Source: Scenedesmus sp. PABB004 (lineage: Eukaryota). Taken from it: a stretch of 64,000 nucleotides of DNA. The DNA lies in contig JABVCE010000012.1 of NCBI GenBank assembly GCA_014905635.1, positions 372,001 through 436,000 of the forward strand, written 5' to 3'. Each line of letters begins with the position of its first letter. Within the stretch, counting starts at the first letter, position 1. Under the pieces are notes generated by a model that was not told the DNA's origin, made no database searches, and saw only the letters and a list, made by a program, of their open reading frames with translations. Positions 1-56,860 of this stretch are shown here, one piece after another. The translations under genes were made by a program, and so were the position numbers.

Positions 1-1905
1 TCTCCCTCGCCACGCACGCGCGCACCACCACGACGCTGGCAGCGCCCCCCGCACACGCACGCGCGCCCAGCCACGGGCCTGCCTCGCCTCGCCCTGGCCG
101 CGCTAGGCGGCGCGCTGCGCGTCGCCCTCGAGGGCGACGTCCGAGTCCCCCTCCCCCACCCCGTCCTCGTCCTCCTCCCAATCGTCCGAGTCCTCCCCCA
201 CCCCGTCCTCGTCCGCCTCCCCATCGCCCGAGCCCCCCTCCCCCTCCCCTCCTCCCCCTCCCCCTCCCCCTCCCCCTCGTCCTCGTCCTCCCCCTCGTCC
301 TCGTCCTCATCATCCGCGAACAAGCTGAGGAAGGCAAGGAAACGGGCAATCTCAGGGTGGTCGTCCGCCGACACGGGCTGCGCTCGGATCCACGCGACCA
401 CGGCCTCGTGGCCAAGGACAAACGCCCCGTCCTCGCACTGCATGCGCTGCCACGGGCAGCCGTTGGCACGCAGCCAGCGCAGCGCCTCCAGGTGCCCGTG
501 CGCAGCCGCCAGCCTGCACACCTCCTTGTTCCACGGCGCGGGCTCGTCCTGGGCGCGCACCCAGCGCAGCATCTCCAGGTCGCCGCGCTCCGCAGCGAAC
601 CTGCACACCCAGTCCCCGTCCCACGGCACCGGCGGCATCTGCGCGCGCGCCCAGCGCAGCACATCCAGCTGCCCGCCCGCGGCAGCTCCGCAACAAGCGT
701 TCCACAGGTCCAGCCCCTCGCCGCGCGCCCACTCCAGCACGGCGAGCTGGCCGGCGCGTGCTGCCTTGTGGACCCCGCCGTGCACGTTGCAGCCGGCGCC
801 GCGCAGCCAGGCCAGCCCCGCCACGTCCCCGCACGCAGCGCGCGCCCCGGCCAGCCGCGACTGCTGCCGCCCATCACCCTGCAACGCCCGCCACGCCTCC
901 TGCACCGCCGCCAGCGGCAGCTCGGGGCAGCGCAGCGAGACGACCGTGGCGCCACGGAAGCGCTCGTGCGCCGCCTTGCAGACCAGCTTGGGGCACCACG
1001 CCTGCAGGGCCAGCGGCAGGAGGTCCAGGACATGGAGCACGAGCGGCTCGGGCAGCTCCGGCAGCGGGCTGCTGGCGGCGCGGCGGGGCGAGGGCGAGCG
1101 GGGCGGGCGGAGGGCGGTCAGGCGCGCCTGCTGCCGGCGGTGGTGGTTCGTGGGCAGCGCGTGCCGCTCCAGGCAGCATCAGCCAGGGGGGCCCCAGCAG
1201 CAGCAGCAGCGGCCCCAACTCGGCGCCGCCTCGGCCCCCGCCGGTGCCTCGCCTGCTGCCGCTGCGGCCGCGCATGCGCTCGTGGTCGGCGCGGCGTGCC
1301 GCTTGCCCGCTGGCGCAGCAGACATGGTTCCACCTGACAGCCTGCGGGCCACCAGGGAGCAGCAGGCGGGGCGCCGGCAGCAGCGTGCGAGCGCGCGGGC
1401 GGCGTGAGCGCGGCAACAGCAGCGCGCGGCGCCCGCCCCCGCCGCCCCGGCGCGGCGGCGCGACGGCGGGCCTACCAGCGGCGCCCGGAGCGCGCAGAAC
1501 TAGCGGCGCACGCCACACGCCCGCCCGCCGCGCACCGCCGGTGCCCCCGCCGCCCGCAGCGGGCGCCGCGCAGCGCGCCCCGCCCGCCCGCCGCTGCCCT
1601 CCCCGCCTGCCCGCGCGCGCGGCTCGCCTGGCGCTGCGCTGGGCGGCACGGCCTAGTCACCACGCGCCCGCGGGTCCGCGCGCCCCGCCTGGCCAGGGGC
1701 GCGCCGCGGCGGCAGCGGGCGCTGCGATTCGAACGGCAGCGCGCGTGCGAGCGGGAGCTGCGAGGGCACTTCCACCGCTGTGTGCGTTTGCGTGTGGCAT
1801 GGGGCTGTGGGCGGCGGCTGTGGGCGGCGCGCGCGGGGGGGCTCCTCGATGGCGGCGCGGGCAGACAGCCGGGCGGCGCCGCCGCCCTGCGCCGCCGCCC
1901 TGCGA
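1..1905 (-). repeat. F-box/ankyrin cassette copy A (gene + conserved leader + downstream spacer; runs off the window start)
   Basis: Leader 1326-~1905 aligns by eye with the leaders of copies B-H (e.g. ctagtcacc...ccgcctggccaggggcgc). Bases 1-90 match the spacer at 4467-4550 downstream of copy B. Boundaries are approximate. Confidence 0.85.
103..1325 (-). pseudogene. F-box + ankyrin-like repeat protein, copy A, with acidic C-terminal tail; probably defective
   Basis: ATG at 1325 ([15 protein letters not shown]). Exon 2 from 1071 reads [30 protein letters not shown]...[16 protein letters not shown]...WIRAQPVSADD then DEDEDEGE. The family donor AG|GTGGGT reads AG|TTGGGG here. A 1-nt shift in a C-run near 246 separates the ORF from the TAG at 103-105. 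Confidence 0.7.
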
Positions 1906-2338
1906 GCGCCGCGTGGTGTTTCAAGCGGCGGCGCCGCAGCAACGCCGCGCCTCCAATGCGCGCACACCAGACACACGCCAGCCAGCCAGCCAAGCGCGCC
2001 CCCAGAGCTGCGCGCTCACTCGCGCTCGAGCAGCACGCCGTCGTCCGTCGAGGACGCAGGCGACGGCCGCCCCCCTGGCCGCTGCTGCTGCGACCCGCGC
2101 GCGGCCCCGTTGCCACCGCCGCCGCTGCCGCCGCTGGGCCGCTCGACCAGCTCCCCCTCCTCCGCCTCGCAGGAGGCCTGGCGGCTGGCGCCGGCGCCAG
2201 ACGCGGCGCTCGGCGGGCCCGGCTGCGCCGCGCGGTGCTGCGCCGCCACGATGCCGCCCCAGCCCGACGTGTAGACGCTCGACGGCGCCGCAAAAGCGGA
2301 CTGCTGCTGCTCGAGGCTGCCGGCGCTGCCGCTCGCGC

Positions 2339-2744
2339 TCAGCGCGCCGCCGCCGCCGCCGCCGCCGGCGCCGCCGGCAGCGCGCGCGCCTGCTGCGCGG
2401 CTGCCGCCGCCGCCGCCGCGCCGCCCGCCCCCGGCGCCGGCGACGCCGCGCCGGGCGAGTGCAGGGCGAAGAAGGGCCCGCTCTCCACGCGCGGCAGATC
2501 GACGAGCAGGAACTGATCACCCCCGCCCGACGGCGCCGCGCCCGGCGCGCCCGGCGCGCCCGGCGGACCGCCGCCGTCGCCGCCGCCGCCGGCGCTGGCC
2601 TGTGCGCGCGCCTGCGCCTGCGCCGCCTGCGCCGCCTGCGGCTTGACGCCCGGCATGGTGCTGGTGAGGGCGTGCAGGATGTCGATGCGCTGCTGCAGCT
2701 CCGCCACCTCCTGCAGGAACGCGCGGCGCCTGCGCAGCGCAGCA

Positions 2745-2788
<44 letters not shown>

Positions 2789-3857
2789 AGGCGCTCGTGC
2801 CGCGCCGCGGCGAGGCGAGCCGCGCGCGCACGCTCAGGCGCCGGCCGGCGCCGGCGCGGACCTGCGCTTGTGGTCGAGCAGCGACGCGGCGAAGCGCCCG
2901 ATGCTGCTGCGCGCGAATCGCCACGTCACAACGAGGGCCGTGACCGCTGCCAGCCCGCCGCGCAGCCAGCGCGACTCGCCGGGCTGCGCGGGGCGCGGCG
3001 CGCGGGGCGTGAGCGGGCGGGTGGCGCCGTCCCGCCCTGCCGCCGCGCCTGCCGGCCCGCCGCTGCGCCACCACCGCCACCGCCGCCGGCCCGATGCCGC
3101 ACCCCCAGGGGAACGAGACGACGGCGGGGCGGCGGCAGCGGCGGCGGCGGCAGCGCAGCGCAGCGCGCGCGCACGCGCCCACCGGCAGCGGTGCGACAGC
3201 GCGCGCGAGCTTGAACAGCGCCCACGCCGCGGCGCTGACCGCCGCCGCCTTGGCCAGCTGCGAGGCGCGCGCGGCGCGCGTGAGCGCGCGCCCGCGCGCC
3301 GCGCCATGCCCCCGCGCCGCGCCACGCGCGCCAGCGCGCGCCGCGCCCCCGCGCGCCGCACCTCATCTGCGATGTAGGCTGGAGGGAAGAGCTCCGGCTC
3401 GAGCTCGTCCACCAGCGACTCCAGGCGCTGCGCAGGGGGGCCGGCGGGGCGCGCGGCGGCGGCGCGGCGCGGCGCTCGGGCGGGCCGGGCCAGGGCAGCC
3501 AGCCCGGGCGCGGCGCGCTGCGGCGAGTGAGGGAGGGAGCGTGCGGCCGCGCCGCGCCGCGCGGCGCACCGCGGCCTCCAGCCGGAGCGCGGCGACGTGC
3601 TGCGCCACGGTCGCCGCGCCGCGGCGCAGCGCGCTGGCGTCGGTCGCGTGGAGGTCGTGCAGCTTCTGCTGCAGCGCCGACACCTGCGCGGCCGGGTCGG
3701 ACGCCTGAGCGCCCGCGCTCAGGGGGCGCCCCCGCCGCGCGAGGGCTGCCGCTGTCGGCGAGCGCTGTTGCCGCTGCTGCCGCTGCCGCCGCCGCGGCGC
3801 CGCCCCCACCTGCGCCTGCAGCTCCGCCACGCGAGGGCTGTCACTGGGGGCGTCCAT
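2339..3857 (-). CDS. Hypothetical multi-exon protein with coiled-coil segments and about 2 hydrophobic helices
   Basis: Exons bounded by GT/AG: MDAPSDSPRVAELQAQ | ASDPAAQVSALQQKLHDL | LVDELEPELFPPAYIADE | AVSAAAWALFKLAR | WLRGGLAAVTALVVTWRF | EVAELQQRIDILHALTST...stop at 2339. No family recognised. Confidence 0.55.
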
Positions 3858-4553
3858 GCGCGGCGACGTGGCCGCGACGCGGCCCCTGCGCGTGGGCCCA
3901 CGCACGCAACCCGCCGCGAGCTCGCCCCGCGCCCACGGGCCCCAACAGCGCCCCGGCGGTGGCGCCTTTGCGATCCCGACTGACCGCGCCCCCGCCTGGC
4001 CAGGGGCGCGCCGCGGGCGGGGGCGGGCGCCGGGCGGCGGCGGCGCGGTGCGTGCGGGCGCTGTGAGAGGCACGGCCGGTGCTGGTGTGTGCGTGCGGCA
4101 GGGGCGCTGAGGGGTACGGCTGTGGGCGGCGGGGCGGCGCGCGCGCTGGGGCCTCCTCGGCGGCGGCGCGGGCAGCCGGCCGGGCGCCTGCGCCCTGGGC
4201 CCCGCACCGCCACCCACGTGGCGCCGGGCTGGCGCGGCGCGGCGCGGCGACGTGCCGCCGTCGCCAGCGCTTGGCGCGGGAAGCTCGGCCCCCGCTCGTG
4301 CACTGCGTGCGCGGTCGGCCGCGGCCGGTTGCCAGCGCGCGCCGCCTCGCCGCCGCCAACTCCCCTCTCCCTCGGCACGCACCCGCGCACCACACGCCCC
4401 GGGCAGCGCCCGATGCACGCACGCGCGCCCAGCCAACTTCCCTCGCCGCCGCCAACTTCCCTCCCCTCTCCCTCGCCACGCGCGCGCACCAGGCCGCAGG
4501 CAGCGCCCCCCGCGCACGCGCGCGCGCCCAGCCACGGGCCTGCCTCGCCTTAA

Positions 4554-4589
4554 GACTACGATCAGGGCAAGCTTGCCCTGATCGTAGTC
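4554..4589. repeat. Perfect 36-bp palindrome
   Basis: GACTACGATCAGGGCAAG|CTTGCCCTGATCGTAGTC is self-reverse-complementary and lies about 10 bp beyond the copy B stop codon. Confidence 0.97.
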
Positions 4590-4598
4590 CGAGCTGAG

Positions 4599-5897
4599 TT
4601 AATCGGGACCGTCCGAGTCGGAGCTGTCCGGCAGCTCCCGGATCCACGCGACCATGGCCTCATGGCCATTGCGGGCCGCCGCGCGCGCACACACGCCGCG
4701 TCGCCACGGGCAGCCGTTGGCGCGCAGCCAGCGCAGCGCCTCCAACTGCCCGCGCTCAGCGGCCGTCCTGCACACCCCCTTGTCCCACGGCGCGGGCTCG
4801 GCCTGGGCGCGTGCCCAGCGCAGCATCTCCAGGTCGCCGCGCCGCGCAGCCCAATAGCACACCTGGTCGCCCCATGGCAGCGGCGGCGTCTGCGCGCGCG
4901 CCCAGCGCAGAGCCGCCAGCTGCCCGCCCTCGGCTGCTCCGCTGCACACGCCCCGCAGGTCCAGCCCCTCGCCGCGCGCCCACTCCAGCACGGCGAGGTG
5001 CCCCTTCCGAGCCGCCGCCCAGCACGCCTCCTTGTTCCACGGCGGGAGCTTCGCCTGGGCGCGCAGCCAGCGCAGCACCTCCAGGTCGCCGCGCTCCGCA
5101 GCGATGTGGCACACGTGGTCACCCCAGGGCAGCGGCGGCGTCTGCGCGCGCGCCCAGCGCAGCACCGCCAGCTGACCGCCCGTGGCTGCTGCACTGCACA
5201 CGTCTCCCAGGCCCAGCTTCTTGACGCGCGCCCGGATGGAGTGGGCCCACTCCAGCACGGCAAGGTGGCCGTGCCGCGCTGCTGGCCAGCACACGCCGCG
5301 CACGTTGCAGCCGGCGCCCTCCAGCCAGGCCAGCCCCGCCACGTCGCCGCACGCAGCGCGCGCCTCCACCAGCGACCGCCGCCGCTCCGCTGCAATCTGG
5401 CTCCAGTCGCGGCGCCCCGCGTTCCGCCCCGAGCGGCGCCGCTCTGCCATGACTTGCAACGCTCGCCAGGCCTCCTGCACCGCCGCCAGCGGCAGCTCGG
5501 GGCAGCGCACCGAGAGGTGCTTGGCGCGGCGGAAGCGCTCGCGCGCCGCCTTGCAGACCAGCCTGGCGGTCCACGCCCGCAGGGCTGGCGGCAGGAAGCT
5601 CAGGACGTGGAGCACGAGGGGTTCGGGCAGGTCGCGCCACAGGCTGGCGGCACATCGCCGGCGGCGGAGCGGACGGGTGGGCGCGGGCGGTCAGGCGGCG
5701 CCTGATGCCGGCGGTGGTGGCTTGTGGGCAGCGCGTGCCGCGCCAGGCAGCACCAGCCAGGAGGGTGCCAGCAGCCAGCGGACCCACCTCGCCGCCGCCT
5801 CCGCGCCGCCAGGCACCTCTCCCGCCGCCGCAGCTCCTGCCGCGTGCGCGCTCGTGGTCGGCCCGGCGCGTCGCTTGCCCGCCGGCGCAGCAGACAT
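4599..5897 (-). CDS. F-box + ankyrin-like repeat protein, copy B (intact; duplicated a-b-c module block)
   Basis: Exon 1 5897-5788 (110 nt), GTGGGT..CAG intron, exon 2 5643-4599. Reads [31 protein letters not shown], then repeats of type AAxxGxLxxLxW and [16 protein letters not shown]. Confidence 0.85.
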
Positions 5898-6619
5898 GGT
5901 GCCGCCTGACAGCCTGCGGGCCAGCAGGGAGCAGCAGGCGGGGCACCGGCAGACGCGGGCGAGCGCGCGGGCGGCGTGAGCGCGGCAGCAGCAGCGCGCG
6001 GCGCCCTGCCCCTGCCCCGGCCCGGCGGCGCGGCGGCGGGCCTGCCAGCGACGCCCGGGCGCGCAGGCCCGGCCGCCCACGCGACATGCCCGCCCGCCGC
6101 GCACCGCCGGTGCCCCCGCAGCCCGCGGCGGGCGCCGCGCAGCGCGGCCCGCCCGCCGCCGCTGCCCTCCCCGCCTGCCCGCGCGCCCGGCTCGCCTGGC
6201 GCTGCGCTCGGCGGCACGGCCTAGTCACCAGGCGCCCGCACGTCCGCGCCCCGCCTGGCCAGGGGCGCGTCGCGGGCGGGGGCGGGCGCGGGGCGGCGGC
6301 GGCGCGGTGTGCGTGTGGGCGCTGTGAGGGGCGCGGCCGGCGCTCGTGTGCGTGTGCGGCAGGAGCGCTGAGGGTGGCGGCTGTGGGCGGCGGGGCGGCG
6401 CGCGCGGGGGCCTCTTCGGCGGCGGCGGCGCGGGCAGCTGGCCGGGCGGCGCCTGCGCCCTGGGCCCTGCACCGCCGCCCGCGTGCCGCTGCTGCCAGGC
6501 GGGCGCGGCGCGGCGACGTGCCGCCGCTGACAGCGCCCAGCGACGGCGCAAGAGCGCGACCCGCCCAGTTCCACTGCGTGCGCGGTCGGCCGGTTGCCAG
6601 CGCGCGCCGCACGCCGAGC

Positions 6620-7685
6620 TCAGCCGCCGCCGCCGCGCAGGCGCGGCGCGAGGCGCGGGAACAGCCTCAGCGCGTTGGCGGTCGTCGCCGCGGCGACCTG
6701 GGCCTCGCTGAGCCCCTTGATGCGCGCGACTGCGGCGCAGCTGACACCGAGGTTGGCGGGCACGTTGGCCACGCCCCGCTCCGGCCCGAGCGCCGGCGCG
6801 TCGGTCTCGAGCACCAGCGCGGCCAGCGGCAGCGCCGCGACGAGGCGCTGCATCGTCGGCGAGCGCACGACGCTCGGCGGCACAGAAAAGTAGTGCCCCG
6901 CCGCGGCGCCTGCGGCCGCGGCGGGCGGAGCGGGCGTGCGGGCCCGCCGCGCGGGTCAGCCCGCGCGCGCCGGTCAGCCCGCGCGCGCCGCGCGCCGCGC
7001 GCCGCGCGCCGCGCCGCACCGCGCAGCGCGTGGGCGGGCCGCCCGTCAAACGCGTGCAGCAGGCTCGGCGGCGCGCCGCCGCGCAGCAGCGCGTCGATCG
7101 CGTAGTGCCCGGCACACCGGCTGTGCACATTAAGCGGGAGGCCGAGCTCCCGGGCGAGGCCAATCTGCGCCTCAAACACCTGCCGGGCGCGCGTGACGTT
7201 GCCGGCGCGCGCGCGCGCGGGCCCGCGTCGGCGCGGCGGCCCGAGCCCCGCCGGCGCGGCCCCCCGCCCCGGCGCGTCCCAGCCGCCGCGCCGCGGACCT
7301 CGGTCTGCGCCGCGCGCAGCTCGTCGCTGTCGCCCACGACGTGGCGGGAGAAGTCGAGGCCCACCTCCCCCACCGCGACGAGCTGCTGCGCGTGGTCACG
7401 GACGAACTGAAGCACCGGCGCCACCTCGTCGTGCGCCACGCTGCGGACGCCGCCCGCGCCCGCTGCGCTCGGCGCCGCGGGCTGCACCGGGTGCAGCCCC
7501 GCGCACGGCGCGACGAGCGGCTGCGCCGCCGAGAGCGCGAGCACGGACCGGCAGTCGGCGAGCGTTTCGGGCACCGCCACGATCGCGCCCACGCCCGCCG
7601 CCGCCGCGTCGGCCGCCAGGCGCGGCAGGTCCTGTTCGGCGAAGGACGGGGCGTAGAAGTGGCAGTGCGCGTCCACCAGCAGCAT
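6620..7685 (-). CDS. TatD-family DNase (TATDN3-like), 3 exons
   Basis: Motifs VDAHCH, GLHP, VGEVGLDFS, NVHSR, LHAFDG, LETDAP. Confidence 0.93.
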
Positions 7686-8119
7686 CGCCGGCGGCGGCAG
7701 CGCCGCCCTCCCCGCGCGCCCCCAAAACCGGGCAGCAGCAGCGACGGCAGCGGCAGCGGCACCACCCCCAGCGCCCCAGTGTCTGCCGGGCGTGTCCTGT
7801 GCGGAGCAGGCGCATCGGCGAGAGCAGCGAGTCAGGAAGGCAGTGCCGCCGCGGCCAGGGCGCCGGCGATGGCGTGGGCGCCGCCCGGGCCGCTGAAGCG
7901 CAAGCTGTCACGACGCAGCGCTGCCCAGGCGAACCGAGCCTCCGCTGCTCCTCGCGCAGTGCGAGAGTGAGTGACGGTGGAGCTGTCCAGCTGGGGAATC
8001 AGCGCACGCCACAGCCGGACGCGCAGCTAGGCCGCCGCTGGTGCCGCCGCCGCTGCTGCCGCTGCTGCCCGCCGCCAGCCGCCGGCGCGGGCGGGCGCCC
8101 CCGCGGGCGGGCGCGAGCT

Positions 8120-9541
8120 ATGAAGCTCAAGGAGCTCCACGCGCTGATGCAGGTGGGAGCGCGCAGCGAGGCGGCGGCAGCGGCGGCGCCCGCGTGCGCG
8201 CTGCGTCCACGCCGCCGCGCCGCCCCCTGGCTCCCTGCAGGACATCGCGCCCTTTGACAGCCCCAAGCCGGCGCTGGAGCAGTACCCCACGGGCCCGGAC
8301 ATCGCGTCGCGCATGCTCTACACGGTGCGGCGGGCAGCGCGGCGCTGGCAGCGCGCGCCGGCCTGGCTGGCGGGCGCACGCGCAGCCGGCGGCGGCTCCG
8401 CCCGCCAGCCCCGCCGCTCACGCCGCCGCGCCGCCGCCGCCGCCAGATCGAGTCGGCGTACGGCGACATCGCCGGCCGCGTCGTGGCGGACCTCGGCACC
8501 GGCACGGTGCGCGGCGCGGCTGACGCCAGGCTGCCGGCGCGCCCCGCCTCGCGCGCCCCGCCCGTCCGCCCGCCCGCCTCGCGCGCCCCGACAGCCGCCC
8601 CACCCCACCCGCCTCCGCCTGCTGCTGCTGCTTCAAATGCAGGGCATGCTCGCGATTGGCGCGGCGCTGCTGGGCAGCCCCGCGGTGCTGGGCGTGGACG
8701 TGGACGCCGACGCGCTGGCGGTCGCGCAGGCCAACGCCGACGCGTACGACGAGCCCCTGCCGGTGCGGCCAGCGCTGCGCTGCTGCGCGCCCGCCGCCGC
8801 GCCACGCGTGAGGCGCTGCGTGGCCTGCCGCCGCGGCCTCGGCCACGGGGCCGCCGCGCAGCTCAGCCGCGCCGCGCCGCCGCGCCTGGGCCCAACCCGT
8901 CAACCCTAAACTGCAGATTGACTTTGTGCTGTCCGAGGTCGGCGCGCTGCCGCGCGCGGCGGGCCGGCTCGCGCCGCACACTGTGGTGATGAACCCGCCC
9001 TTCGGCACCAAGGCGGGCGCCAAGGGCGCCGACGTCGCCTTCCTGCGCGCCGCCGCGGCGCTGCGCCCGGCCGCGATATACTCGCTGCACAAGACCTCCA
9101 CGCGGGCGCACATCGAGAAGGTCGCGCTGCGGTGCGCGGCGCGCCCTGGCTGCACCGCCGTGCCGTGCCCTGGCTGCGCCGCCGCGCGTGCGTCAAAACG
9201 CAAGCCGCCTGCGAGCGGCGCGCAGGGAGCTCGGGTGCGTGAGCGCGGAGGTGATCGCGGAGCTGCGCTACGCCCTGCCCGCGACGATGCGCTTCCACAA
9301 GTGCGGCGGGGCTCAGCGGCGCGCGGCGGGGCCTGGCGCCTGGGGCGGCGCGGGCCTCGCGAGGCGATCGCCGACCCCGCCGCCGCCGCGGCCGCGCCGC
9401 GTGCGCAGGCAGAGCAGCGTCGACATCGCGGTGGACGTGTGGCGCCTGGCGCTGCGGCACGGCAGCGACGGCGGCGGCAGCAGCAGCGAGGGCGAGGGCG
9501 GCAGCGAAGCGGGCGAGAGCAGCGGCGACGGCGGCGGCTGA
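8120..9541 (+). CDS. METTL5: METTL5-like rRNA N6-adenosine methyltransferase, multi-exon
   Basis: MKLKEL..., PKPALEQYPTGPDIA, VADLGTGTGML, VMNPPFGTK, IYSLHKTSTR, AELRYALPATMRFHK, VDIAVDVWR. Confidence 0.93.
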
Positions 9542-9808
9542 CGCGGCGCGGCGCGCCGGCGGGCGCCGCAGGGCGGCTGCAGCCGCAGCCGCCGGCCGGC
9601 GGGCGGGCCGCACGCCGGCGTCCGTCTGTTACGAGCCCTGGCTCCCCTCTCGCCCTCCGCCCGCCCTCCCGCGCCCGCGCCCGCGTCCGGCCCGGCCCGT
9701 CCGTCCCAGCCTGCGCTCCCTCGCGCGGCCCCTCCCCGCCGCCGCCGCGCCGCCCACGCCCGCCTCGCTCCCTGCTGGATGGAGGTCGAACCAGCAGGGC
9801 GCGCCTCT

Positions 9809-10231
9809 TCACTCCTTGCTGGTGATGACGAGGAGGGCGAGGAGGCCGATCAGTCCAAACTTGAGCAGCGGGTAGTCGTTCATCACGATCGTGACCATGC
9901 CCATGTAGGGCAGGAAGCTGGGCGGGCGCGGACGGCACGGGCGGACGGGGGGCGTGACGTGGTGCGGCGCGAAGGCGAGCGGGCGGCGCGGGCGGCGCAA
10001 GGTGAGGTCAGACAGGGAGGGGGGAGGGGCGAGGCAGAGCGAGCGGCCAGCAGTGGCGCGGCGCGACATACAGCCCCCTCCTCACCCGACCGCGCGGCCC
10101 ATGATGTGGTGCATGTGCAGCCACTCCTGCCCCCGCGCGTACAGCAGGCGGTCGTCGCCGTAGTTGTTGTCGCCCTGCGCGGCGCGACGCGCGCACGGGC
10201 GGCCGTGTCGGCATTGCGGTGCACCCGCAGG

Positions 10232-10312
<81 letters not shown>

Positions 10313-10706
10313 CCGCCCGCACGCCTTTGTGAGGATGTCGAGGTGCGGCCGCGCGCCGCCGCCCGCGCCCCGCGCCGCTGCCAGACTCTCCGCCGCCGCC
10401 GGCGCCGGCGGCGCCGGGCGCGCGCTGGTGGACCTTTATGACGCGGTGCACGATGGGAATGTCGCGGCCGTCGATGTTGAAGACCACAATCTCCCCCGTG
10501 CGCACGGGGGCGGCGCCCATGTGCAGGAAGAGGATGTCGCCGCGCTGGAAGCCCGGCTCCATGCTGCCGCTCAGCACGACCACGACCTGGGCGGGCCGAC
10601 GGGCGGGCGGGGCGGCCGAGCGGGCGGGCGCGGGCGGGCGGGCAGGCGCATGCGGGCGCGGGCGCGTGGGGCGGTGGCGCGCAGGGCGCGCGGCGGCGGC
10701 GGCGGC

Positions 10707-10770
<64 letters not shown>

Positions 10771-11198
10771 GGCGGCGGCGGCGGCAGCGGCGGCGTCGGC
10801 TGACCGGCGACTCGCTGCCGGTGAGGAGCATGAGGCTCTTCCATATGATCAGCGCCGACGTCACCACCAGGCCTGGACCGGCGGCGCGGGGGCGGCGGGC
10901 AGGGGCGGAGAGAGGGTGAGGGGGAGAGGGAGGAGGGGTGAGAGAGCGAGAGATGGGCGGCGGCGGCCGGCGGTTGCGGCGGTTGGCGCGCCCCGGCCGC
11001 CCGCCCGCCGGCTGCCGGTGCGCCAGCCGCCGCCCCCGGAGCGCCGCCCGCGCCGCGCCCCGCCGCGAAGCCGCGCCGCGAAGCCGCGCCGCGCCGCTGG
11101 GCCGCACCCAGGTTGACTGCCTGGTTCATGAGCGCGCGCGGCGACATCGCGCGCAGCTCGGCGGTGAAGCCGTCCCACTGCTCGCGCACCCACTCCAT
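9809..11198 (-). CDS. SEC11: Signal peptidase complex catalytic subunit SEC11
   Basis: [16 protein letters not shown] | [21 protein letters not shown]...[36 protein letters not shown]. Confidence 0.96.
10232..10312. repeat. (GCC)n trinucleotide microsatellite in a SEC11 intron
   Basis: Uninterrupted GCC run; a similar GGC run occurs at about 10708-10770. Confidence 0.9.
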
Positions 11199-13125: not shown

Positions 13126-13442
13126 GCCGGCAGCGCGCGCGCGGCGCGGGGCGCGGGGCGCGCGCCGGCCCTTTGCTGGCGGCCCCCGCGCGGCGCCGCC
13201 GCGGCGGGGCGCGGGGCGGGGCGAGGCGGGGCGGGGCGGGCGGCCGCTGCAGCAGCGGGCCCGCCGCACGTGTACAACAGGCGACGAACGGGGCTGCGGG
13301 GGCGAATCAAGGCCGCAGCCGCCGGCGCCGCGGCGCACGTGTAGACTATCAGGCGCTGCCCCGCCGCCGCCGCGCCCCGACGGCGTGGCCAGGGCGGCGG
13401 GGCGCGGCGCGGCGCGGCGGGGCATCTCTTGGTGTGCGGGTC

Positions 13443-16103: not shown

Positions 16104-16173
<70 letters not shown>

Positions 16174-16590: not shown

Positions 16591-16652
16591 AGCGTCGCCG
16601 GGCGGGCGGCGGGCGCGGCACGCGCGTTTTTTGGGGGCGGCACTGCGCACGC

Positions 16653-23920: not shown

Positions 23921-23921
23921 C

Positions 23922-47531: not shown

Positions 47532-50115
47532 ATGGCGCTGGGCGGGCCTCCAGCAGGGCTGGCGCGGCCGGCCCGGCGGCGCGCGGCCCTGCTGCTGCTG
47601 CTCGTGGCGGCAGTCGCGGCAGCGGGCGGCGGGCGCGGCGCGGCCGCCGCGCCGACGCCCGTGCCGCCCCTCGCGCGGCCGGTGGGCGCCGCGGGCGCCG
47701 CGGGCGCGGCGGCGGCGGCGCCGCTGCTGGCGCCGGCGCAGGAGCGCGCCGCGGCGGCGCCGCTCCCGGCTGCTGCGGCCGCTGCACCCGCGGCGCCGCC
47801 GGCGGCCGACGCGCCGCCGGGCGTGCCGCGCCTGGAGCTGGCCAAGTGGAACCGCGCGTACGTGCTGCGGCTGAGCAACGTGAGCGACGCGGTCAACGCC
47901 GAGTACCTGGTCGTCCCGGAGACCTGCCGCGCCGAGGGCTTCGACTCGGAGCCGTCGGCAGCGCCGCTCGACGCGTGCTTCACGCGCCGCAACGACGCTG
48001 GGCTGATTGACTACTGGGTCAAGAAACCGGGTGCGCCGCGGGCGCGGGGGCGGGAGGCTGAGGGGCCGCAGCGCGGGAGGAGGCTGAGGGCACGGGCGCG
48101 CTCGAGCGCGCGCCGACGCGCGGGCGCGCCGCCCCGCCGCGCCGCCGCGCCGCGCAGGCGACTGGCGCGTGAACAGCAACTGCTACTGCTACGCGCTGAA
48201 CGTCTACCGCGGCGGCTTCTGCATCCCTGGCCGCGGCAGCGCGGTCATCACGGCCGCGATGAAGGGCGGCGCGGCGCCGACGTGCGAGCTCATGACCGCC
48301 GCGCTGCTCGCCGATGGCGCGCGCGAGGTGCCGCGCGCGGCCGCGCTCGGGCCGCAGCCGGCGGCGGGGCACTACATCGGCCTGCTCGTGCGCCCGCGCG
48401 GCTGCAACCCCTACCACTGCTGGGAGCAGGCGCGCGCGCCGCGCCGCCGCGCCGCGCCGCGCCGCGCCGCGCCGCGCCTGCAGCTCGACGGGGCCGGCCC
48501 CCTCGCCGGCGGCCTGCGCCACGTGGCGAGGCCGGGGCGTGCGGCGCCGGCGGCGCCTGACGCCCGCCGCCGCCCGCCGCGCGCGCGCAGGACTTTCACG
48601 CCGTGCGCCGCGACGCGGGCGGCCTCTGGAGCTGGAAGGAGCCCGGCGGGCCCGCGAGCGACGCGGACCTGCACGGCGCCAAGATCTCCGACCCCGAGGC
48701 CGCGGTGCTGCCGGGGCACTACAGCTTCTGCGCCTACTTCCACGTCGAGCCGGCGCGCATGACCATCGGCGGCGACTTTGGCGGCGACTTCACCGGCGGG
48801 TGGAGCCTCAAGGCGCTGTCAGACTTTTACCGCCGCCTGCCGGGCGTGGACGTGCGGCTGGCGGTGAGCGCGCCGTACGCGCCGTCGACCGACGGCGCGC
48901 CCGACCGCTGGGCGGCGAAGCAGCTTGAGGAGGACCTGCGCTGGGAGGCAAAGCGCGGCACGCCGGAGTGGGACGCGTGGGCCGCGGCGCAGCGGGCCGG
49001 CGCCGGCGCGGGCGCGGCGGCGGCCGCGGCCGCGCGCGCGCGGTGCCGGCGGCGGCGGCGGCGGCGGCGGCCACGACGTCACCAACCTCTACGGCCGCGG
49101 CGCCCCGCCCGGCGGCGGCGCCGAGTTGCCCGGCGCCGCGACCAACCTGCAGGCGCGGCCGGCGGCCGACGCGCTCGGCCGCGGCGCAGCGCCCGGCGGG
49201 CAGGCGGCGGCGGCGGCGGCGGCGGCGACAGTCGTGCAGCCAGCGCAGCCGGCGGCAACAGTGCAGCCGGTGCAGCCGGTGGTGCTGCCGCAGCCGGCAG
49301 CGGCTTTGCAGCCCACCGCGGCAGCAACGGCGCAGCCCGCCGCGGCAGCGGCGGCAGCAGCGCAGCCCACGGCCCTGCCCGCCGCGGCAGCAACGGCGCA
49401 GCCCGCCGCGGCAGCGGCGGCAGCAGCGCAGCCCGCGGCCCAGCCTGCCGCGGCGCAGCCCGCCGCGGCAGCGGCGGCAGCAGCGCAGCCCACGGCCCTG
49501 CCCGCCGCGGCAGCAACGGCGCAGCCCGCCGCGGCAGCGGCGGCAGCAGCGCAGCCCGCGGCCCAGCCTGCCGCGGCGCAGCCCGCAGCGGCAGCGGCGG
49601 CGGCAGCGCAGCCCACGGCCCTGCCCGCCGCGGCAGCAACGGCGCAGCCCGCCGCGGCAGCGGCGGCAGCAGCGCAGCCCGCGGCCCAGCCTGCCGCGGC
49701 GGCGCAGCCCGCAGCGGCAGCGGCGGCGGCAGCGCAGCCGGCGGCCGCAGCGGCGGTGGTCGCGGCGCAGGCGGCGGCGGCGGCGGCGGCGCAGCCGGCG
49801 CTGCTGCCGGCAGCGGCGGCGGGCGCCGCCAACGCAAGCACGCCGCTCGCGTTCAGCAGCCTGCCCACGAGCGCAGCTGCCGCGGACGGCACCAAGCCCC
49901 GTCGGCCGGCAACCACGGCCGTCGCGTCGCGCGCTGCGGCGCCGCCCGTGCGCCCGACCGCGGCGCCAGGCCGGGTGCCGGGGCTGCCCGCGGCGCCGGC
50001 GCTGACGCCGGCCGCCGCGGCGGCGCAGCGCGCGCGCGTGACCGCGCGCCGGCTGCTCGGGCGGCTGGCCGGTGAGCCGCGGCGCTCTGGCGACGCCGGC
50101 CGCGTCGCGCGCTGA
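47532..50115 (+). CDS. Secreted protein with NCYxYA / DFH / WSxK motif domain and Ala-Gln-Pro repeat tail
   Basis: Signal-like AALLLLLVAAVAAA; exons NSNCYCYALN..PGRG, HYIGLLV, DFHAVRRDAGGLWSWKEPGG..KISDPE..YSFCAYF; frame change near 49030. Confidence 0.7.
49321..49740 (+). repeat. 123-bp (41-codon) coding tandem repeat, about 3 units
   Basis: CCCACGGCCCTGCCC recurs at 49366, 49489 and 49612. Confidence 0.92.
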
Positions 50116-50526: not shown

Positions 50527-51535
50527 TCACTCGGGCTGCGCCCGGATCCACGCGACCACGGCCTCGCGGCCATGGTCCGCCGCCACGTCCTCGCACTCAG
50601 CGCGCCGCCACCGGCAGCCGTTGGCGCGCAGCCAGCGCAGCACCTCCAGGTGCCCGTTCGCAGCCGCAAATTGGCACACCTTGTCGCTCCACGGCGCGGG
50701 CTTGGCCTGGGCGCGCGCCCAGCGCAGCACCTCCAGGTCGCCGCGCCGCGCAGCGACGTGGCACACCCCGAACAGCGAGTCACCCCAGGGCAGCGGCGGC
50801 GCCTGCGCGCGCGCCCAGCGCAGCACCGTCATGCGCCCGCCCTCGGCTGCCCCGCGGCACACGTCCTGCAGGTCCAGCCCCTCGCCGCGCGCCCACTCCA
50901 GCACGGCGAGCTGGCCGGCGCGCGCTGCTGCCCAGACCATGCCGTCCACCATAATCCCTCTGCCTGTGTCATACACGCGGCCCATGTCGCAGCCGGCGCC
51001 GCGCAGCCAGGCAAGCCCCGCCACATCGCCGCACGCCGCGCGCGCCCTGGCCAGCCGCAGCTGCTGCTGCCCCGGGCCGTCCTGCGCCGCCCGCCAGGCC
51101 TCCCGCACCGCCGCGAGCGGCAGGTCGGGGCAGCGCAGCGAGACGCGTCTGGCGCCGCGGAAGCGCTCGCGCGCCGCCTTGCAGACCAGCTTGGCGGCCC
51201 ATGCCTGCAGGGCCGGCGACCAGAGGCCCAGGACGTGGAGCACGAGCGGCTCGGGCAGCTCCGGCAGCGCGCTGCAGGCGCGCGGCGGGGGCGGGCAGGC
51301 GGGCGGGGCGGGCGGCGAGCGGTCAGGCGGCGCCTGCTGCTGGCGGCGGTGGCTTGTGGGCGGCGCGTGCGGCGCCGGGCAGCACCAGCCAGAGAGCACC
51401 AGCAGCAGCAGCAGCGGACCCACACCTCGCCGCCGCCTCCACCCCAGCCAGCGCCTCGCCTGCCGCTGCTGCGGCCGCCGCGTGCGCGCTCGTGGTCGGC
51501 CCTGCGTGCCGCTTGCTCGCCGGCGCAGCAGACTT
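50527..51535 (-). pseudogene. F-box + ankyrin-like repeat protein, copy G; family start codon mutated
   Basis: ACC-ATG-TCT of other copies reads ACC-AAG-TCT (51535-51533). Exon 2 51271-50527 is still open to WIRAQPE*. Confidence 0.65.
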
Positions 51536-52317
51536 GGTGCCGCTTCTGACAGCCTGCGGGCCACCCGGGAGCAGCAGGCGGGGCACCGGCAGCGGGCAAG
51601 CGCGCGGGCGGCGTGAGCGCGGCAGCAGCAGCGCGCAGCCCCCGCCCCCGCCCCAGCGCGGCGGCGCGGCTGCGGGCCCGCCAGCGGCGCCCAGGGCGCG
51701 CAGGCCCGGCGGCCCACGCGACACGCCCGCCCGCAGCGCACCGCCACAGCCCCGGCCGCCCGCAGCGGGCGCCGCGCAGCGCGGCCCGCCCGCCGCCGCT
51801 GCCCTCCCCGCCTGCCCGCGCGCGCGGCTCGCCTGGCGTTGCGCTGGGCGGCACGAGCTAGTCACCAGGCGCCCGCAGGTCCGCGCCCCGCCTGGCCAGG
51901 GGCGCGCCGCGGGCGGGGGCGGGCGGTGCGATTCGAACGGCGGCGCGCTGTGAGGGCTGTGATCACGGACTGAGGACTGAGGGCGGCGGCTGTGGGCGGC
52001 GCGGCATGCGGGGGGCCTCCTCGGCGGCGCGGGCAGCCGGCGGGCGCAGCGCCTGCGCCCTGGGCCCTGCACCACCGCCCCCGCGCCGCGGCCGCTGCGG
52101 GCGCGGCGCGATGACGTGCCGCCGCTGCCGCCACCGCAGTGCTCGGCGGCGTGGGAGCGTGTGCGCGAGGCCCGCCGAGGCGGCGCGGTCGGCCGGTTGC
52201 CAGCGCGCGCGCCGCTTCGCTCCGGCCCGCTGCTGCCAGCGCCAACTCTCGTCGCCACGCTGTCACCACGCCGCGCACAGCTGGCTGCCTCCCGCCACGG
52301 GCACCAAAGCCGGCGGC

Positions 52318-53536
52318 TCACTCAGGCTGCGCCTGGATCCACGCGAGCATGGCCTCGTCGCGACGCCACGCCGCCGAGCGCTCGCACTTGGCGCGCTCCC
52401 ACGGGCAGCCGTTGGCGCGCAGCCAGCGCAGCGCCTCCAGGTGCCCGTTCGCAGCCCCCCCCCCCCCCCCGCACACCCACTCGTTCCACGGCGCGGGCTC
52501 GCCCTGTGCGCGCGCCCAGCGCGGCATCTCCAGGTCGCCGCGCCGCGCAGCGTAGTAACACACGTGGGTGCCCCACGGCAGCGGCGGCGTCTGCGCGCGC
52601 GCCCAGCGCAGCACCGCCAGCTGACCGTGCCAGGCTGCTCCGGTGCACACGCCCCGCAGGTCCAGCCCCTCGCCGCTCGCCCACTCCAGGACGGCGAGGT
52701 GCCCCTTCCGAGCCGCCGCCACGCACGCCCGCTCGTCCCACAGTGCAGGCTCGGCCTGGGCGCGCGCCCAGCGCAGCATCTCCAGGTCGCCGCGTTCCGC
52801 AGCGAAGAGGCACACGAGGTCGCCCAGCGCCAGCGGCGGCGTCTGCGCGCGCGCCCAGCGCAGCACGCACAGCTGCCCGCCCATGGCTGCGCCCTCACAC
52901 ACAAGCTGCAGGTCCAGCCCCTCGTCGCGCGCCCACTCCAGCACGGCGAGCTGGCCGGCGCGCGCTGCGCCCAATGCAACAAAGGCCAGGTCGTCGCAGC
53001 CGGCGCCGCGCAGCCAAGCCAGCCCCGCCACGTCGCCACACGCTGCACGCGCTTCCGCCAGCCGCGACTGCTGCTCCTCATCAACCCCCGCTGCCCGCCA
53101 GGCCTCCTGCACCGCCGCCAGCGGCAGGTCGGGGCAGCGCAGCGAGACGCGTCTGGCGCCGCGGAAGCGCTCGCGCGCCGCCTTGCAGACCAGCTTGGCG
53201 GCCCACACCCGCAGGGCCGGCGGCAGGAAGCTCAGGACGTGCAGCACGAGGGGCTCGGGCAGCTCCGGCAGCGGGCTGCTGGCACGGGCGGGGGCAGGCA
53301 GGCGGGCAGGGCGGGCGGCGAGCGGTCAGGCGGCGCCTGCTGCTGGCGGCGGTGGCTTGTAGGCGGCGCGTGCGGCGCCGGGCAGCACCAGCCAGGGGGT
53401 GCCAGCAGCAGCGGCAACGGACCCACCTCGGCGCCGCCTCCGCCCCAGCCAGCGCCTCGCCTGCCGCCGCTGCGGCCGCCGCGCGCGCGCGCGTGGTCGG
53501 CCCGGCGCGCCGCTTGCCCGCCGGCGCAGCAGACAT
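52318..53536 (-). CDS. F-box + ankyrin-like repeat protein, copy H (intact; duplicated a-b-c block; in-frame G16 tract)
   Basis: Exon 1 53536-53427, exon 2 53278-52318; ends WIQAQPE*. Confidence 0.87.
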
Positions 53537-54384
53537 GGTGGTGCCGCTTCTGACAGCCTGCGGGCCACCAGGGAGCAGCAGGCGGGGCACCGGCAGCGTG
53601 CGGGCGAGCGCGCGGGCGGCGTGAGCGCAGCAGCAGCGCGCGGCGCCCGCCCCCGCACTTGCGCGGCGGCGCGGCGGCGGGCCTGCCAGCGGCGCCCGGG
53701 GCGCGCAGGCCCGGCGGCCCACGCGACACGCCCGCCCGCAGCGCACCGCCACAGCCCCGGCCGCCCGCAGCGGGCGCCGCGCAGCGCGGCCCGCCCGCCG
53801 CCGCTGCCCTCCCCGCCTGCCCGCGCGCGCGGCTCGCCTGGCGTTGCGCTGGGCGGCACGAGCTAGTCACCAGGCGCCCGCAGGTCCGCGCCCCGCCTGG
53901 CCAGGGGCGCGCCGCGGGCGGGGGCGGGCGCGGGGCGGCGGCGGCGCGTGCGGGCGCTCGTGTGCGCCGCAGCCGGCGCTTGTGTGTGTGCGGGTGTGTG
54001 TGGCAGGGGGGCTGAGGCGGCTGTGGGTGGCGGGGCGGCGCGCGCGGGGGCCTCCTCGGCGGCGGCGCGGTCAGCCGGCCGGCGGCGCCTGCGCCCTGGG
54101 CCCCGCACCGCCGCCCGCGTGCGGCCGCTGCCGGGCGGCGCGGCGTGGTGACGTGCTGCCGCCAGCGCCCGGCGACGGCGCGGGAGCATGTGCGCGCGGC
54201 ACGCCCGGGCGCGCTGCTTGCGCGGTGGGGCAGGTAGCAAAGAGTTGTGGGTTGCCGCTCGCCCCGACCCCTCGGGCGCCGCCAACTCCCTTCTCCTCCG
54301 CCGCACGCGCTCTTCCGCCGCCGCCACCGCCGCCACTGCCGCCGCAACCGCCTGCCGCCACACACGCGAAGCACGGCGCCGCGC

Positions 54385-56860
54385 TCAGTGCACGTGGCTG
54401 CACGCGGGCTCGCGGATGGTGCCCTTGATGTCCGGCGGCGGCAGGCTGTCCACGTCCAGGCTCGCGTCCAGCTCGGAAAACGTGCTGCGCGCGGCGGCGG
54501 CGGTCGCGGCGGCGGTCTCGGGGTGAGGCACGCGCATCCCGCCCCGCGCGCCCGCCGCGCGCCGCAGCCCGGTGCCCGCGGCGCCCGCGTGCCCGGCGCA
54601 GCGCGGCGCGGCGTGCGGCGCTCACGTGAAGAAGGCCAGGAAGTGGCGGTGCGCGAGCGCGACGTCGGCCGCGCCGCACATCTCGCGGATGCTGTGCATG
54701 CTGAGCTGCGGCATGCCCACGTCGACGGTGCGGCAGCCGAGCGCGTGCGCGAGGATGGGGCCGATCGTGCTGCCGCAGGGCACGTCGTTGCGCACGCAAA
54801 ACTCCTGCGTCGGCGCGCCCGCGCGGCGCCCCACCTCCCTGCCGCCGCGCGGCGCGGCGCGCGGGCGGCGTCGGCGGCGCCGGCGACATCGGCATCTGCC
54901 GCGGCGGGCGCGGGCGCGCCGCGCCTCTGGCCCTGCCCCGCCTCCCGCCTCCCCTTCTGCCCCGCGGCGCGGCGCGCCTGAAGAGCGCGGCGCTGAGCGC
55001 GTTGGTCGCGTAGCGCTGGTTGGCGTTGTGTTTGATCACGAGGCCGCCGTGGAAGGACGGCGCGTGCAGCGGCTCGTGCTTGTCCGTGTAGTTGGGGTGC
55101 AGCGCGTGCGCCATGTCGGCGCTCACCAGGAAGCTCTGCCGCAGCGTGCGCTCCACCGCGCCCTCCTCGCCCTGCGCGCGCGCGCACGCGGCGGCGGCGG
55201 ACGCGGCGGCGAGGTCGGCGCCCGCAGCAGCCGCCGCGACACGCCCGCGCCCTGCAGCGCCGCCGCCGCGTCGGCACTGCTCAGCGACGCGTCGGCGGCG
55301 GCCGCAACGAAGGGCATCGCGGGCGTCACGACGCGTCGCTGAGCAACGCCAACGCCGCGGCGGCGCTGCAGGCGGCGGGCATATCGCGCCGCGCGCCCGC
55401 GCGCGCTCGGCGCCCCCGCTGCTGCCGCCGCGCCTGCGCGAGCTGGCGCGCGACGCGCGTGATGGTGTCGCGCATGACGGGCCCGCCCGCGCCCTGCGCG
55501 CTGTCGCTGCCGACCTCCTCGTGGTCAAACATCGCGACCGACCGCACCGCCGCCTCGCCGTCGAGCGCGTCCGGCGCCGCGACCGAGTCGATCAGCGCCT
55601 GCGCGCCGCGGCGTGAGCGAGCAGCGAGCAGCACCTCGCGCGCGGGCACGCCGCAGGCGCGTGCGCGCCGCCGTGCCGCCCGCCGGCCCGCCCGCCGGCG
55701 CCGCCCGTGTCCCGCGCCCGCCGCCGCGCGTGCCGTGGCGCCGGCCGTCCCCCCTCGCCGCGCACCTCGAGCGCAGTGTAGCATGAGGCGAGGTTGTCGA
55801 GCCGCCCCGCAAACACAAACTCGTCGCCCGCGCCGCCGAGCACGCCCGGCTGGACGTCGCACACGGTCAGCTCCATGTCCACGATGTCCCCCGGCGCGCA
55901 GCCCAGCTCGCGCGACACGAGCTCCAGCAGCGCCGCGTGGTGCGCGCCCGTGACGTCGCCGGGCGGGCCCGCGGCCGGCGCGGGCGGCGCGGCCGCGGGC
56001 GCGGGCGCGGGCGCGCCGTCCGCGGCCGTGGCGGCCGCGGGCGCGGGCTGCGGCGGCATGGCGCGGCGGGTCGCGGGTCGGCGCGCGTCGGCTCGCCGCG
56101 CGGGTCGCGGCTCGCGCCGCGCCGGCTCGCCGCCCCCGCCTGGGCCGCCGCGCCGCGCGCCGCGCGCGCAGCGCCGCCGCAGGATCACCTTTGGCACGGT
56201 GCAGAGCACGGGCTTGAGGTGGTCCTGGAAGTTTGGCTTGAAGCCCTCTGTGTAGAGGTTGCGCTGCAGGTGGATGGCGAGCATGGGGATGCGCAGCACG
56301 GGGCGGTCCACCTTGACCAGCCTGGCGGGTGGTGGCAAGCCGCAGCGGCGGTCGCGCGGAGGAAGAACGCGTGAGCCGGGCCGCCGGCGCGGCGGCGGGC
56401 CGGGGCCGCGGGGCGAGGGGCGCGGGCCGCGGGCGCCGCACCGGTGCGTGAGCTTTGCGCCGTCGCGCACGAGCACGCGGCCGGCGAGCCCGAGGTCGCG
56501 GTCAAACCAGGTGTACCACAGCCCGCCGCCGTACGTCTCCACGCCGACCGTCTGGCACCCGCCCGACGCGCTGCGGCTCACCGGCTTGACCTGCGCGCAG
56601 CGGCGGCGGCGCCGGCGGCGCGGCAGCGCGGCGGTGTTGGCGGCAGGGGCTCCGGGCGCGCCGCCGCCGCCGCCCGCCGCCGCCGCCGTGCTGCGCCGTG
56701 GGCCCGCGCCGCCGCGCCGCGCCCGCCGCACGCGCCTTGAGGCAGGGGCTGTCCGTGTGGGCGCCGACCATGTAGAAGGGCCCGCCGGGCGCGAAGCGCG
56801 CCCCGATGGCAAACGCGACGAGCGTGCTCATGTTGCGCGTGAAAAAGTACTTGCCGCCTG

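Follow-up and report, generated by a model that had tools for sequence, protein, structure and literature searches.

The stretch of DNA analysed here (the window) comprises 64,000 nucleotides of contig JABVCE010000012.1 of Scenedesmus sp. PABB004 (positions 372,001 to 436,000, forward strand) and contains one dispersed repeat, a cassette made up of a non-coding leader and a two-exon gene for an F-box/ankyrin protein. Self-BLAST of the window yielded eight full copies of 1.5–2.0 kb, designated A to H, and two orphan fragments of the leader 5' end, designated oB and oF (Table 1). At all seven independent positions in the window, the cassette follows the stop codon of a gene that has the same orientation and is called the host gene below. 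Judged from the sequence, this bias is real: cassettes stand behind a gene, point in its direction and never occupy the divergent gaps between two promoters. We tentatively favour the interpretation that the cassettes constitute a lineage-specific F-box/ankyrin family, which would have spread by duplicative insertion at the DNA level and would borrow the 3'-end signals of its hosts.

The assembly of strain PABB004 (GCA_014905635.1) is reported to comprise 39.8 Mb in 77 contigs, with a G + C content of 78.5%, 7,092 genes and 1.31% repeats (PMC12571836). The window has a uniform G + C content of about 80% (0.75–0.84 per 2 kb). A six-frame count yields 401 open reading frames (ORFs) of at least 100 amino acids in the 64 kb, so that open frames carry little meaning at this composition. 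The ends of the host genes were re-derived from Pfam matches (scan of the 401 six-frame ORFs, E ≤ 0.001), reading frames and public gene models, the latter being placed on the window by exact-match mapping of their exons. A coding score was based on codon usage trained on the Pfam-supported exons of the window. For counts beyond the window, the annotated PABB004 proteins served as a proxy for a whole-genome placement test. Searches of the window against Rfam and for tRNA genes gave no matches.

The distance from the host stop codon to the 5' edge of the cassette is 9 nt for TatD and B and 0–42 nt for RNF10 and D (11 nt to the motif GAGTTGGC described below, 42 nt to the BLAST edge). It amounts to 96 or 155 nt for DNPEP and H, 133 nt for CDH1 and E, 310–335 nt for thioredoxin and C, 492 nt for BTS and F and 100 or 423 nt for the unnamed gene and A. 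These values agree with those of a previous reading of the same DNA (the sequence-only reading), which had given approximately 10 nt for TatD, 5–55 nt for RNF10, 75 nt for DNPEP, 145 nt for CDH1, 320 nt for thioredoxin, 430 nt for the hypothetical gene and 500 nt for BTS. Within arrays, H and G are separated by 69 nt, F and oF by 68 nt and B and oB by about 240 nt; as stated before, G follows H, oB follows B and oF follows F in gene orientation.

The provisional gene map of the window features 13 gaps between non-cassette genes, of which five are divergent, four convergent and four tandem. Cassettes occupy three convergent and three tandem gaps and no divergent gap, and A lies behind a co-oriented gene at the window edge. 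Re-derivation gave the same count of five divergent gaps, none with a copy, as the sequence-only reading; one of them, between TatD and a methyltransferase-like gene, is based on a weak Pfam match (E = 4.6e-4) and weak codon scores. In all three occupied tandem gaps (B, C and F) the orientation of the cassette is that of both neighbours, again as proposed earlier. With random placement and orientation on this map, the chance for a single insert to have a co-oriented 3' end upstream is 0.40 if gaps are weighted by length and 0.46 if they are counted. Seven co-oriented positions out of seven correspond to p = 0.0015–0.0045, and six out of six, if A is left out, to p = 0.004–0.010. For six occupied gaps to include none of the five divergent ones among 13, a p-value of 0.016 was obtained.

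The claim that cassettes stand behind co-oriented stop codons also extends beyond the window. Fused public models contain 16 further junctions of a host followed by a cassette, 14 on the same contig and two on other contigs (behind BMS1 and TFIIB). Pfam-supported hosts on the same contig outside the window are histone deacetylase, GH1, radical-SAM/CofH, FHA, DUF1295, WD40 and PAN proteins. Taken with the window, this makes at least 23 of 29 positions at which the gene upstream is co-oriented (binomial p of about 0.001 against 0.5). The upstream neighbour is not readable from the model at the other six (P0001, P0002, P0003, P0005, P0133 and P0135); since fused models can show only co-oriented neighbours, these positions are not failures. 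Six of the 23 hosts are without a family match, namely the gene upstream of A and the N-terminal parts of P0125, P0130, P0138, P0146 and P0163, and such N-terminal parts may be spurious open frames at 80% G + C.

The repeated unit begins with a leader of 590–776 nt (84–87% G + C). Its codon-usage score of −0.4 to −0.5 on both strands is like that of intergenic DNA, indicating that the leader is non-coding, and the ORF scan of the window found no Pfam match in it. Exon 1 is 108 nt in length and is opened by a conserved ATG (ACC ATG TCT GCT GCG CC). A GT..AG intron with in-frame stop codons is kept in all eight copies, and exon 2 codes for the F-box and the ankyrin repeats. An F-box-like motif is conserved in all copies. 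Within the window, a Pfam match to this domain was obtained only for B, with 19.6 bits (E = 7.6e-4), which is under the F-box-like cut-off of 24.3 bits; the annotated relative P0121 reaches 47.9 bits for F-box (cut-off 20.5) and 48.6 bits for F-box-like. Ank_4 is found over its cut-off of 22.7 bits in seven of the eight copies (A, B with E = 2.3e-15, C, E, F, G and H), and the frameshifted D falls below the threshold. Lesions were observed in four of the eight copies: G lacks the ATG, D is frameshifted, and A and B are without the canonical stop codon.

In six of the eight copies (C to H) the homology extends to a common stop codon (...CAG CCC GAG TGA GC). It ends at this stop in C, D, E and G; in F and H, nothing continues it but the next copy with its spacer and leader. 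The alignment of E and F, the closest pair, revealed nothing in common 3' of the stop. That the homology of the unit stops at its own stop codon points to borrowed 3'-end signals rather than a borrowed promoter. The 5' edge is variable: leaders are full-length in D, G, H, oB and oF and nearly so in B and C, and A, E and F are without the first 150–200 nt or so. Full-length leaders open with GAGTTGGC, followed by GCTGGCAACCGGCCG. All five matches of GAGTTGGC in the window are located at cassette 5' ends (1.4 matches expected). The five exact matches of GCTGGCAACCGGCCG in the window all mark 5' ends of cassettes or orphans (B, C, G, oB and oF), and D is one base off. Parts of the cassette with 81–85% identity still align and the flanks do not, so that the copied unit is discrete.

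Tandem pairs are frequent (H–G, P0001, twice in P0121, P0123, P0125 and P0127). The stretch that leads from the stop of F through the spacer into oF is 86% identical to the one from the stop of H through the spacer into the leader of G. The repeat thus includes the tandem junction itself, and the orphans are what is left of second copies. The spacer between DNPEP and H can be aligned with the spacers between cassettes from the TGAGC of the stop onwards (z = 2.5–3.3), which is a weak hint; the RNF10-to-D spacer of 14 nt is too short for this alignment. Both oB and oF directly precede the 5' end of the co-oriented gene that comes next, where they may have been co-opted as its promoter or may interfere with it. 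An apparent additional common segment upstream of A and F (2453–2320 and 35749–35615) was rejected, as it is made of low-complexity GC repeats that can be aligned in many shifted ways.

With exon 2 of E as query, PABB004 proteins were found as the closest relatives. One of them, annotated as 'FZR2' (916 amino acids), is 100% identical to E in its last 221 residues. Annotated models contain 25 more copies on the same contig of 1,235,393 bp, which gives at least 33 there, and three copies on other contigs. The 32 shorter proteins found include no PABB004 hit. Among metagenome contigs encoding relatives, two loci were detected, both for distant ankyrin proteins (44% identity). The tree of 36 cassette protein segments is star-like, with 19 of 33 inner branches unresolved and a median terminal branch of 0.38. 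Good support is limited to E/F (99), the trio P0132/P0133/P0148 and one annotated, near-identical pair joined by its closest relative. The first members of tandem pairs H, P0127_1 and P0125_1 group together (SH-aLRT 81–90) and second members do not resolve, a pattern too weak to claim movement as dimers. The shape of the tree looks like a single burst of copying, followed by independent decay or diversification of the copies. Judging by the tree and the census, the amplification would have been one burst, almost all of it in one region of the single 1.24-Mb contig.

The regions of the cassette differ in mean pairwise identity (28 pairs), which is 81% for the 5' part of the leader, 91% for the leader core, 91% for exon 1, 85% for the intron, 88% for the F-box and 80% for the ankyrin part. 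The 5' part and the core of the leader have G + C contents of 0.855 and 0.859, respectively; base composition thus does not explain why the core is better kept. Its conservation would fit better with an own promoter or 5' untranslated region (5'UTR) of the cassette than with a passive 3'UTR of the host. The coding part evolves in a near-neutral manner (dN/dS 0.96 in the F-box and 0.83 in the ankyrin portion), and its substitutions do not show three-base periodicity. Neighbours are most alike in the leader core (E–F 97%, G–H 96%), and the nearest relative of F is E (97% in the leader core, 92% overall).

Two observations on individual copies concern local conversion or duplication. In the inverted neighbours C and D (14265–14682 and 17630–18047) and E and F (27638–28374 and 33778–34514), stretches are 93–94% complementary, which is well above the family average and suggests that cassettes on either side of a host gene were recently converted or duplicated from each other. 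The protein P0121 (1,966 amino acids, encoded on the same contig outside the window) contains two histone-deacetylase stretches with two cassettes after each. Its layout suggests a block duplication of the host together with the pair, which would be a second route of copy multiplication.

The cassettes might also be an ordinary, fast-evolving family of complete genes, each with its own promoter and terminator, whose copies arose locally through rearrangement and segmental or tandem duplication. The placement would then result from purifying selection in a compact genome combined with small-sample luck, and the sharp edges would be gene-conversion tracts. F-box families are described to undergo lineage-specific expansion and drift-like evolution in plants (PMC3719486, PMC7829749). 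The dN/dS values close to 1, the high similarity of neighbours, as expected from conversion or local duplication, and the block duplication suggested by P0121 are in line with this view, and the divergent gaps are short (250–900 nt) and probably intolerant of insertions. However, co-duplicated flanks should align in the same way as those cassette parts that are 81–85% identical, and none of them do, even for E and F. The tree is star-like instead of nested by position, and the hosts at the seven window positions are unrelated. Co-orientation, seen in three of three tandem gaps and in at least five further tandem contexts within fused models, does not follow from promoter avoidance alone. Although it deserves serious consideration, we regard this view as somewhat unlikely.

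A discrete unit with a burst-like star phylogeny, at least 36 copies and clustering on one contig, as in 'local hopping', might also be a non-autonomous mobile element that is moved in trans and prefers DNA just behind genes. The fixed 3' end and the variable truncation at the 5' end would agree with this. Against it, scores for terminal inverted repeats (TIRs) and target-site duplications (TSDs) were within the range of shuffled sequences in all six copies tested, no run of A was seen after the cassette stop, and a terminal hairpin is likewise missing. The Pfam scan of the window ORFs returned no transposase, reverse transcriptase, integrase or recombinase. The retained intron counts against retroposition; together with the lack of a poly(A) remnant and a TSD, it shows that the cassette is not a processed retrocopy. 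A repeat content of only 1.31%, as reported for the genome (PMC12571836), also speaks against such an element. By these signatures, the cassette is not a recognisable transposon or retrocopy, and movement in trans appears decidedly unlikely. The uniform G + C content and the intron-bearing housekeeping neighbours indicate that the region is not a viral insert.

The sequence-only reading had proposed that the cassette may borrow host transcription. In this model, the cassette would lack its own promoter and depend on read-through of the upstream gene, forming part of a longer host 3'UTR or the second cistron of a bicistronic mRNA, and insertion behind a co-oriented stop codon would be the condition for its expression. 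A co-oriented gene lies directly upstream at all seven window positions and at no fewer than 23 of 29 overall. The 9 nt behind TatD and the 0–42 nt behind RNF10 leave no room for a host 3'UTR, so that a normal TatD or RNF10 mRNA would have to end inside the cassette; the proposal that these two transcripts run into the leader is thus supported by the geometry. An acceptor-like site, ...CCCGCAG|G, is conserved about 16 nt upstream of the cassette ATG, and chlorophytes do have polycistronic mRNAs, with median inter-ORF distances of 212–260 nt (PMC7896298) and, in many cases, less than 100 nt between the ORFs. In contrast, host stop and cassette ATG are 690–1,111 nt apart at all seven positions. 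Translation of green-algal polycistrons is reported to occur by leaky scanning, which requires few AUGs upstream of the second ORF (PMC11291117), whereas each of the four host coding sequences counted contains 8–14 ATG triplets. The eight leaders together hold seven ATGs against 11.3 expected; as the copies are not independent, this figure is not used as evidence.

The leader also gives little indication of an internal ribosome entry site (IRES). Folding of the leader core shows no excess over 100 shuffled sequences (z = 0.06), and compensatory changes are present in 3 of 152 predicted pairs (covariation term +5.1). With no excess folding, hardly any compensatory change and no Rfam family, an IRES-like element is not supported. 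As would be expected of a regulatory region, the core is kept better than the intron and than the leader 5' part, which is just as GC-rich. Second members of tandem pairs are located about 1.8 kb further from the host promoter. Bicistronic expression as in green algae is hence at odds with the stop-to-ATG distance, the upstream ATGs, the structure of the leader and the conservation of its core. Bicistronic translation of the cassette is unlikely on these grounds, and we consider dependence on read-through from the host in general to be unlikely as well. A read set, probably freshwater metagenome DNA, contained 5% of the sampled words; compared with positions 1–20000, it included no listed piece across a host–cassette junction, but the listed pieces stem from records shorter than 400 nt and many matches are of low complexity, which makes the comparison uninformative.

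The public models of the window join hosts and cassettes (Table 1), and taken literally they would represent true fusions, in which host genes are spliced to the cassette and encode host-F-box/ankyrin proteins. This is how four window models and about 16 others are annotated, with the conserved acceptor in front of the cassette ATG as splice site. To do so, they bypass the '...TIR' tail and stop codon of CDH1, and the DNPEP model splices off just before the stop of its terminal exon. Some of them merge three genes (DNPEP, H and G; thioredoxin, C and the next gene). The cassette brings a start codon of its own, in a good context, and its F-box is N-terminal; the stop-free frames found everywhere at 80% G + C (401 ORFs) invite over-merging. 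That the fusions are genuine is therefore highly improbable.

According to the interpretation we prefer, the repeat unit would run from stop to stop: it would begin at or shortly behind a stop codon, which in arrays is that of the preceding copy, continue with a spacer of about 70 nt, the non-coding leader of about 700 nt and the two exons, and close with its own stop. Copies would be placed by DNA-level events, one at a time or as tandem pairs, in the short intervals that follow genes, probably, as we infer, by template switching or ectopic recombination from nearby copies. Two causes could produce the bias. Selection would act against hits on promoters, and, as the unit brings no 3'UTR, it would obtain a usable mRNA 3' end only upstream of host 3'-end signals and in the correct orientation. 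The cassette would take over the displaced 3'UTR of the host, and the host transcript would end in the 5' part of the leader, which in arrays is the sequence that follows the stop of the copy before. Transcription most likely starts from the cassette's own conserved leader, which would serve as promoter and 5'UTR. A burst of copying combined with borrowed 3' ends would explain why cassettes share the position and orientation behind a gene, why divergent gaps are empty, why the homology ends at the stop codon and how the orphan leaders behind B and F came about.

In a more specific version, the cassette would be a novel eukaryotic type of gene cassette that acts as a self-propagating 3'-end swap: a stop-to-stop unit, copied from a neighbouring array, would land at or just behind a co-oriented stop codon. 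Spacer and leader would then act as the host's new 3'UTR or terminator, and the original 3'UTR would pass to the cassette. Such a swap would explain position, orientation, the missing 3'UTR and the orphan leaders if true; we hold it to be quite unlikely.

Several points weigh against the preferred interpretation of borrowed 3'-end signals. TGTAA is the usual poly(A) signal of chlorophytes. It occurs three times in the 64 kb (14028+, 18287− and 22568−), with two of the occurrences inside the leaders of C and D, and AATAAA does not occur at all. The 3'-end signal of this alga must differ, and TGTAA did not point to poly(A) sites of hosts or cassettes. A and B, as well as the annotated relatives P0002, P0003 and P0005, carry an acidic or serine-rich tail past the canonical stop, which makes the boundary at the stop codon valid for one subfamily only. 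At four of the seven positions (A, C, E and F), the leader is separated from the host stop by 100–490 nt of unrelated sequence, and insertion there was thus not at the stop itself. The motif TGAGC was ruled out as a specific target microhomology, as it has 77 sites per strand. Copies that evolve near-neutrally imply a weak filter for a usable 3' end, and the bias would then stem from the insertion process or from avoidance of harm. The conservation of the leader core could be the result of gene conversion instead of function. Finally, all p-values depend on the provisional gene map, with gap lengths estimated from unverified gene models, and on small numbers.

Table 1 Coordinates of cassettes, orphan leader fragments, host stop codons and fused public models in the window
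Feature	Position	Strand	Remarks
Cassette A	375–1915	−	5'-truncated leader; ATG at 1325; Pfam Ank_4; canonical stop replaced, acidic C-terminal extension
Orphan oB	3986–4362	−	First ~375 nt of leader; GAGTTGGC at 4355–4362; behind B
Cassette B	4630–6610	−	ATG at 5897; internal ankyrin duplication; canonical stop lost, next stop TAA 4601–4599
Cassette C	13436–15201	+	ATG at 14212; stop 15199–15201; internal duplication near leader 5' end
Cassette D	17121–18853	−	Full-length leader from RNF10 stop; ATG at 18103; ankyrin part frameshifted; stop 17123–17121
Cassette E	26893–28455	+	Leader 26893–27489; exon 1 27490–27597; intron 27598–27753; exon 2 27754–28452; stop 28453–28455
Orphan oF	33250–33547	−	First ~300 nt of leader; 68 nt behind F stop
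Cassette F	33616–35264	−	5'-truncated leader; ATG at 34661; one extra ankyrin repeat; stop 33618–33616
Cassette G	50527–52248	−	Second of tandem pair H–G; AAG (51535–51533) in place of ATG
Cassette H	52318–54288	−	First of tandem pair H–G; ATG at 53536; stop 52320–52318
TatD stop	TGA 6622–6620	−	Last ORF 6623–6955 matches Pfam TatD_DNase profile 163–252 of 253
RNF10 stop	TGA 18856–18854	−	Protein named rnf10 by its source; no Pfam match here
DNPEP (M18 aspartyl aminopeptidase) stop	TGA 54387–54385	−	GTGAGC intron, then last exon 54483–54388
CDH1/FZR stop	TAG 26757–26759	+	Closes '...MARTIR' C-terminal tail
BTS (hemerythrin/CHY/RING E3 ligase) stop	TGA 35759–35757	−	zinc_ribbon_6 to residue 381 of 383
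Thioredoxin stop	TGA 13098–13100 or 13123–13125	+	Depends on frame of last exon
Stop of unnamed gene upstream of A	2341–2339 or 2018–2016	−	Two candidate stops; no family match
Fused model CDH1 + E	23336–28452		Named FZR2
Fused model DNPEP + H + G	50530–57576		Named aspartyl aminopeptidase
Fused model thioredoxin + C + next gene	11975–16805		Named thioredoxin-like 4
Fused model RNF10 + D	17124–22804		Named rnf10

The C-terminal tail and TAG stop of CDH1/FZR (26640–26759) are in a frame that differs from that of the last WD40 exon, across a GC-rich low-complexity stretch; the shift could be due to a tiny intron or to an assembly indel. An (AC)38 microsatellite (16097–16171), a rare AT-containing repeat at 80% G + C, is located in an annotated intron of the gene between C and D. 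A tandem array at 49309–49826 shows repeat periods of 66 nt and 123 nt (97% matches for the longer one) and is rich in GCAGC(C/G). It lies just downstream of a coding signal on the + strand that ends at about 48.9 kb and upstream of cassette G, where the coding score is low; it might encode a repetitive segment rich in Ala and Gln, or else be non-coding. Long runs of (GCC)n and (GGC)n (10216–10330 and 10690–10800) flank a short interval in the region of an S24-peptidase-like gene.

A full-text literature search found no paper that unites F-box, ankyrin repeat and Scenedesmus, and among the matches listed for PABB004, none is about the cassette family as judged by title and start of the abstract. 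Plant F-box expansions resemble the cassettes in combining an F-box with a variable interaction domain and in their young copies, weak constraint and decayed members (PMC3719486, PMC7829749). Unlike these, the cassettes are not simply arrayed, but interleaved singly or in pairs behind unrelated genes, and the unit stops at the stop codon and carries about 700 nt of conserved upstream non-coding DNA. Green-algal polycistrons, mostly bicistronic nuclear loci, share the co-oriented neighbouring ORFs, and in two cases here the next unit lies within about 10 nt of the upstream stop; the differences are the longer stop-to-ATG distance, the long upstream ORFs with their ATGs and a repeated cassette with a conserved leader. 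F-box/ankyrin proteins of protists and giant viruses (Balamuthia, Acanthamoeba, Chrysophaeum, Tribonema, Pandoravirus, Mollivirus and Cedratvirus) have the same architecture and repeat consensus, with 40–50% identity over the ankyrin part. These proteins are distant, however, and have neither a common leader nor a known placement rule.

Bacterial integron cassettes are likewise compact, ORF-bounded units, inserted with a single orientation behind a promoter or transcribed gene. Neither an integrase nor an attC-like site was found here, and the cassettes belong to a eukaryote, in which dispersed copies each have a long leader. Retrocopies and sequences mobilised by LINEs have a fixed 3' end and variable 5' truncation, lie beside host genes and use the regulatory signals of their neighbours, whereas the cassette keeps its intron and is without a poly(A) remnant or target-site duplication. 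F-box expansions and algal polycistrons are already known, and the interleaved, co-oriented, stop-to-stop arrangement is a new variation.

For gene annotation, the cassettes have a direct consequence. Gene finders are misled by them, and the four fusions in the window and about 16 others inflate protein lengths and distort orthology for CDH1/FZR, DNPEP, RNF10 and thioredoxin. Should the placement rule hold genome-wide, a gene would have been multiplied dozens of times in a compact, repeat-poor genome using only the space behind genes. This would bear on the packing of 3'-end signals and promoters, on the diversification of F-box receptors and on the spread of gene units without transposon machinery.

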